NCBI RefSeq assembly: GCF_044324875.1
Contig: NZ_CP172185.1
Length of the DNA stretch: 64,000 bases
Direction: 5' to 3' (one strand)
DNA from: Escherichia coli
Lineage (GTDB): Bacteria > Pseudomonadota > Gammaproteobacteria > Enterobacterales > Enterobacteriaceae
Shown here piece by piece: positions 7,646-8,375 of the stretch (its first letter is position 1; each line of letters begins with the position of its first letter). Position numbers and translations under genes: made by a program. The notes under the pieces are model-generated. The model was not told the DNA's origin. It was given only the letters and a program-made list of their open reading frames with translations, and ran no database searches.

Positions 7646-8326
7646 TTAACGCAGGCTATTATAGTCATCGACCATTTCGTTGTACTCGCGTAACGCTCGC
7701 GGAAATGAGTCGTCGACCATCCAGCTGGTGTTTGCATCCTGAAGTTGCTCTTTATCCCAGTCAGAGTACGGAACTTTATCTCTGACGCGGCGAACATATT
7801 TTTTAGCCTCGAGTTGATACTGGTCTGCCGAATTAATGAACGAGAAATTCATACCGCCTTTATCCGCTTCTTTGGCCTGCGCCACCAGCGTTTCCAGTTC
7901 AGAGACTTTCTTCATTGCCGCATCAACATCAAACTTCTCTTGCGAAATCAGGTTATTAATTTGTTTCGCTGAAATCATGACTGCCAGAGAGTAGTAGTGG
8001 AATGTTTTCCCTTCTCTTTGTTCAATATTTTTCAGTTCCGCAAGCTGGCGCTTATCGTTAATTTCCTGAATCGCCGCATGATAAGATTCTGCTACAGGTT
8101 CAAAGGCTTCAAGATTTTTTAAGAATGTCTGGTGCAGCGTTTTCCCTTTCGCAAACGCATCGTCTTTATAATTTTCCTGGGTGTAATATTTATCCATTTC
8201 GTTAATGGTATTACCCAACGCCACGGCAGCATCAATATAACTCACCGCCACGCCATCAATAGGTTGCAGCGCAGGCGTTAACGCCACTACACGCATTTTG
8301 TTTATAAATAAAATAATAAAATTCAC
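7646..8326 (-). CDS. yiiG: YiiG-like protein (DUF3829 family), possibly N-terminally shortened
   Basis: 226-aa ORF in the yiiG position between frvR and fdhD; no signal peptide at N-terminus. Confidence 0.65.
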   Translation of the reverse strand: MNFIILFINKMRVVALTPALQPIDGVAVSYIDAAVALGNTINEMDKYYTQENYKDDAFAKGKTLHQTFLKNLEAFEPVAESYHAAIQEINDKRQLAELKNIEQREGKTFHYYSLAVMISAKQINNLISQEKFDVDAAMKKVSELETLVAQAKEADKGGMNFSFINSADQYQLEAKKYVRRVRDKVPYSDWDKEQLQDANTSWMVDDSFPRALREYNEMVDDYNSLR

Positions 8327-8336
8327 GAAATGAATA

Positions 8337-8373
8337 AGTCCTGCAATTTAATATATATCGCAGGACTTATTTT
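8337..8373. other. Strong palindromic stem-loop between fdhD and yiiG
   Basis: ATAAGTCCTGC...GCAGGACTTAT 11-bp arms with AT-rich loop; T-rich flank on plus strand. Confidence 0.4.
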
Positions 8374-8375
8374 AA

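Follow-up and report, generated by a model that had tools for sequence, protein, structure and literature searches.

The analysed window is a 64,000-nucleotide stretch of Escherichia coli DNA (contig NZ_CP172185.1 of assembly GCF_044324875.1), in which an open reading frame occupies the position of yiiG, between fdhD and frvR (Table 1). The original prediction described this frame as an N-terminally shortened yiiG of 226 aa that starts 50 bp from the fdhD stop codon. The frame was confirmed, and the distance from the fdhD stop to its GTG was measured as 49 bp (8327-8375).

Table 1. Features of the fdhD-yiiG-frvR region, in coordinates of the window.
Feature	Coordinates	Strand	Description
frvR	5848-7596	+	Neighbour of yiiG; its end is convergent with the yiiG end
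REP-like perfect palindrome	7600..7624		GTGTCGGATGCG c CGCATCCGACAC, between the frvR and yiiG stop codons
ORF in the yiiG position	7646..8326	-	226 aa, GTG start
yiiG remnant	7646..8287	-	K-12 yiiG codons 139-351 and the stop codon, by alignment
Two 10-bp direct repeats	8004-8013 and 8139-8148	-	AAGGGAAAAC, both intact in the window
Deletion junction	8280..8287	-	Single copy of the repeat GTGGCGTT, by alignment with K-12
Former fdhD-yiiG intergenic DNA	8288..8326 (8280-8326 with the repeat)	-	Now in frame with the remnant
Hairpin	8333..8371	-	Perfect 12-bp arms, 15-bp RNA stem
fdhD	8376..9209	-	Intact, 277 aa

Several other features were seen nearby. The REP-like palindrome is conserved in K-12, and beside it, at about position 7634, lies a 6-bp indel (ACCAAA) which is absent in the window and in K-12 and present in CFSAN061763 and E118. 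Beyond fdhD, positions 9234-9432 on the plus strand match the Rfam family RF02778 (FdoG-1 5' UTR thermometer) over its full length (model positions 1-193), just ahead of fdoG, whose start is at 9403. The match, the sole one from an Rfam scan of 7400-9500, is sub-threshold (32 bits vs a gathering score of 50, E = 1.4e-5). fdoG itself appears as two plus-strand ORFs (9403-9990 and 10039-12453), of which the first ends at a stop codon (9988-9990) that is presumably the selenocysteine codon known for FdoG. Over 10 kb (window 4000-14000) no complete RefSeq E. coli genome comes closer than 99.0% identity, so the source lineage is not closely represented in the collection.

The 478-bp deletion and the yiiG remnant

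In K-12 (DH1, MG1655) yiiG (b3896) is 1056 bp long, lies 152 bp downstream of fdhD and encodes a 351-aa product annotated as 'DUF3829 domain-containing lipoprotein YiiG'. Its N-terminus is MKRNLLSSAIIVAIMSLGLTGC, with the lipobox LTGC at residues 19-22. The original prediction was right that K-12 YiiG is a longer lipoprotein, and the two products differ in length and start (351 aa vs 226 aa). The locus is orthologous, placed between fdhD and frvR in both genomes; 205/213 amino acids of the codons retained in the window are identical to K-12, and nucleotide identity is about 95% over the first 600 nt. Pairwise alignment of the fdhD-yiiG region, the check which the original prediction had named, showed a 478-bp block of K-12 to be gone from the window, in agreement with the proposed deletion of the 5' part. 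The block spans positions -56 to +422 relative to the yiiG start, that is, 56 bp upstream of the ATG and CDS nucleotides 1-422. Codons 1-138/141 are missing, and true yiiG homology begins at 8287.

The ends of the block are marked by a short repeat. K-12 contains GTGGCGTT twice, 478 bp apart and within an 11/13 match GTGnnGTGGCGTT, while the window keeps one copy, at 8280-8287. Two copies flanking the K-12 block and one remaining in the window are the pattern left by a microhomology (slippage) deletion. All 8/8 short alleles compared have the identical junction. The ancestral full-length yiiG probably lost the 478 bp when replication slipped, or illegitimate recombination took place, between the two GTGGCGTT repeats, the first in the fdhD-yiiG spacer and the second at codons 139-141. 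In the 56 promoter-proximal bp and the start of the gene, the deletion took the Shine-Dalgarno sequence and the ATG. From the protein it took the signal peptide with its lipobox, a linker rich in Pro and Ala, and the first two of the helices in the DUF3829 domain. What was left came by chance into frame with the upstream spacer codons. The 226-aa ORF is a mechanical one in this sense, existing because the spacer DNA happens to be in the reading frame of the remnant.

The remnant itself consists of 213 codons without an internal stop or frameshift. It matches Pfam DUF3829 (PF12889) with E = 4e-74 at profile positions 65-285 of 285 only, whereas K-12 YiiG covers positions 2-285. The AlphaFold2 model of K-12 YiiG (mean pLDDT 76, reaching about 90 or higher in most of the domain) has residues 1-67 disordered (signal peptide and Pro/Ala linker), followed by an all-helical domain at 68-351. 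According to the model the deletion removes the helices at 70-102 and 125-139, so that the domain in the window is incomplete, with about a quarter of the YiiG fold missing. The outgroup comparison shows that the deleted segment holds residues kept across genera, among them two cysteines. As to relatives of the fold, a PDB sequence search with YiiG found no solved relative and no NCBIfam model matched the protein. The only hit of a Foldseek search with the model was weak (E = 0.06) and concerned 3rh3, a DUF3829-like protein from structural genomics.

The missing lipoprotein signal noted in the original prediction was borne out: the signal peptide codons fall in the deleted 478 bp, and the 226-aa ORF is free of cysteines, which makes a lipobox impossible. 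The former spacer DNA offers two in-frame start candidates, an ATG at 8294-8296 and the mechanical GTG at 8324-8326. No Shine-Dalgarno sequence precedes the ATG, and the ORF has no ribosome-binding site that can be recognised. The ATG is not conserved either, as other short alleles and the outgroups have ACG or GCG in its place. The remnant has lost its native promoter-proximal DNA, Shine-Dalgarno sequence, start codon and export/lipidation signal, and it is probably not expressed.

Loss of the promoter, also part of the original prediction, is supported indirectly. A K-12 mutational study labels positions -23 and -28 from the ATG as 'yiiG promoter' (PMC11742677 supplement). Both positions are C in the K-12 sequence and both lie within the deleted 56 bp. 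A promoter scan of the window and K-12 returned nothing relevant and missed the K-12 yiiG promoter itself; being blind to that promoter, it says nothing either way.

The hairpin between fdhD and yiiG

The original prediction placed a palindrome with 11-bp arms at 8337-8373, in the gap between fdhD and the ORF. The palindrome is real, but its position and arm length needed correction, as the perfect arms are 12 bp long and lie at 8333-8344 and 8360-8371. They can be extended to 18-nt arms with 89% complementarity. Read in the fdhD sense, the RNA folds into a 15-bp stem 4 nt past the fdhD stop codon, with an energy of about -19 to -20 kcal/mol and z = -3.8; 1/200 shuffles folded equally well.

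The hairpin is widespread. It is identical in K-12 save for one loop base and was found in 5313/5426 E. coli genomes (98%) whatever their yiiG state, in O157:H7 at 100% identity. Two O157:H7 genomes that were checked combine it with a full-length yiiG. It occupies a median of 1 place per genome (maximum 2) and as a single-copy element is no dispersed repeat, lacking the multiple copies of REP/BIME elements or MITEs.

Outside E. coli the hairpin also occurs in E. whittamii and two cryptic clades. In E. whittamii (L006 23-2290) and Escherichia sp. MOD1-EC7003 (L007 1-2307) an ORF of about 755-768 aa directly precedes the hairpin and yiiG, in the place that fdhD has in E. coli; an NCBIfam scan of the E. 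whittamii ORF gave no match. Homology of the cryptic clades to E. coli begins at TTAATTAAAATAAG, which contains the E. coli fdhD stop codon. Since the upstream gene is not fdhD in at least two taxa, the hairpin travels with the 5' flank of yiiG. In an underpowered set of 7 distinct sequences, 95.9% of cells retain the pairing and one pair, CG>UA, is compensatory.

With intrinsic (Rho-independent) terminators the element shares a stable stem-loop 4 nt past a stop codon, flanked by A-rich sequence on the 5' side and U-rich sequence on the 3' side. The tail past the full stem is CAUUUCGUG; counted from the end of the G+C core stem, the tail reads UUAUUCAU, in which 5 of 8 bases are U. By the rule of a terminator scanner it has no canonical T-tract and was not called, and an Rfam scan of 7400-9500 found no family for it. 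It is probably a weak, possibly bidirectional intrinsic terminator, or an insulator separating yiiG from the upstream gene. By sequence comparison this separate element 3' of fdhD is older than the deletion, which left it intact; it has no visible part in that event and lies 46 bp from the junction.

Distribution and decay of the short alleles

The outgroups tested were E. whittamii, two cryptic Escherichia clades, E. albertii, two Superficieibacter and a Rahnella. All of them encode a full-length YiiG that has both signal peptide and lipobox, so the short form is derived. Among 5426 complete E. coli genomes the 478-bp segment is present in 3916 and absent in 1510. A junction-spanning 46-mer, whose design prevents seeding by K-12-type DNA, matched in 940 genomes. 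A second junction haplotype gave 414 further exact, non-overlapping matches; it is 2 SNPs away from the first and has no 28-mer in common with it, so that one 46-mer alone undercounts. Taken together, the junction is found in at least 1354/5426 genomes (25%). Carriers include Nissle 1917 and strains of O18:H1 and O102:H6. In 147 genomes, for example AGR4587 from water, the yiiG region is just 80-90% identical to K-12; these probably carry a divergent or clade-derived allele.

In all 7/7 short-allele genomes inspected, PGAP annotates a pseudogene ('incomplete; missing N-terminus'). The allele is thus already known at the annotation level, and because roughly one in four complete E. coli genomes also carries it, the finding is right but ordinary. 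The pseudogenes of CFSAN061763 (CA897_RS22585), E118 (G5T40_RS21310) and Nissle 1917 (ECOLIN_RS22465), for which PGAP gives the product 'YiiG family protein / DUF3829 domain-containing protein', have the same junction as the window. Throughout the remnant, CFSAN061763 and the window have the same sequence.

Sister alleles of the B2 type carry further lesions. Nissle 1917 and E302 lost another 135 bp between the two AAGGGAAAAC repeats. A +1 frameshift is present in eco-241, CS18F and M114, and CS18F also has a +3 insertion. Window-type alleles still have their native 3' end with frvR beside it, in contrast to the Nissle type (B2), where a carbohydrate porin gene adjacent to rhaM stands in place of the last ~7 yiiG codons and the frv operon (loci L004, L005 and L017-L019). 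Private substitutions number 9 nonsynonymous and 1 synonymous in the short alleles, against 0 nonsynonymous and 3 synonymous in K-12, which are small numbers. The additional lesions in sister alleles such as that of Nissle 1917 indicate decay. The window remnant has no extra lesion and no private substitution and is the least decayed form among the alleles compared. As its frame is open and free of private changes, decay is demonstrated in the sister alleles only.

The deletion occurs on two divergent remnant haplotypes. The window differs from Nissle at 24/465 positions, Nissle from K-12 at 15/465, and the eco-241 remnant looks mosaic. Over 600 nt the window remnant differs from K-12 at 28 positions, compared with 27-29 for the cryptic-clade alleles. 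Two haplotypes point either to recurrent identical slippage or to recombination after a single event, so the slippage deletion could have arisen more than once.

Alternative explanations and significance

Taken together, the 226-aa ORF is very probably what remains of the lipoprotein gene yiiG after a 478-bp repeat-mediated deletion of its 5' part, and non-functional. One competing view is that the remnant encodes a working, shortened DUF3829 protein of the cytoplasm, whose translation would start at the new in-frame ATG or GTG on a transcript that reads through from fdhD. The intact 213-codon frame and the ATG at 8294-8296 fit this view, and a hairpin without a canonical T-tract makes read-through conceivable. 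It is nevertheless highly improbable, because that ATG has no Shine-Dalgarno sequence and is replaced by ACG or GCG in other short alleles, because the product would lack its signal peptide and about 25% of its folded domain, and because frameshifts and further deletions are found in other lineages that share the junction. The 9:1 ratio of nonsynonymous to synonymous private changes and the PGAP pseudogene calls also speak against it.

The remaining explanations concern the origin of the short form. If short yiiG were ancestral and K-12 carried an insertion, the commonness of the short form would be accounted for, and nothing else; the idea is refuted by the outgroups, as 6/6 taxa are full-length with a signal peptide. 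In addition, the extra K-12 DNA is conserved coding sequence and no mobile element, and direct repeats flank it in the long form as in the substrate of a deletion. The palindrome sits in the short gap beside the truncated ORF and could be suspected of being a product or marker of the deletion, or its cause, as a recombination site or mobile-element scar. This reading is refuted: the palindrome is ancestral, single-copy and kept in the cryptic clades, its K-12 copy has one changed loop base, 98% of genomes have it regardless of yiiG state, and the junction is 46 bp away. An assembly or sequencing artefact can be dismissed, because the identical junction recurs in at least 1354 independent complete genomes.

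Whether the loss of YiiG brought an advantage is a separate question. That it was adaptive rather than neutral seems unlikely, with the following observations in its favour. A natural yiiG null allele is fixed in large extraintestinal lineages, Nissle 1917 and O18:H1 among them. In multi-drug-selected K-12 mutants, mutations of the yiiG start codon (ATG>ATT) and of its promoter have been reported (PMC11742677), and an IS-insertion hotspot near yiiG was replicated across clinical collections (bioRxiv 10.1101/527788). If the deletion proved recurrent, this would fit repeated selection for yiiG loss.

For annotation, the 226-aa ORF is to be labelled as a yiiG pseudogene and not as a protein-coding gene, and the palindrome is not to be taken for a deletion scar. 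The allele is a handy lineage marker, present in ~25% of complete E. coli genomes, and it illustrates stepwise gene decay through repeated microhomology deletions. A large share of natural E. coli, Nissle 1917 included, are yiiG nulls, which forms a background for work on this uncharacterised lipoprotein.
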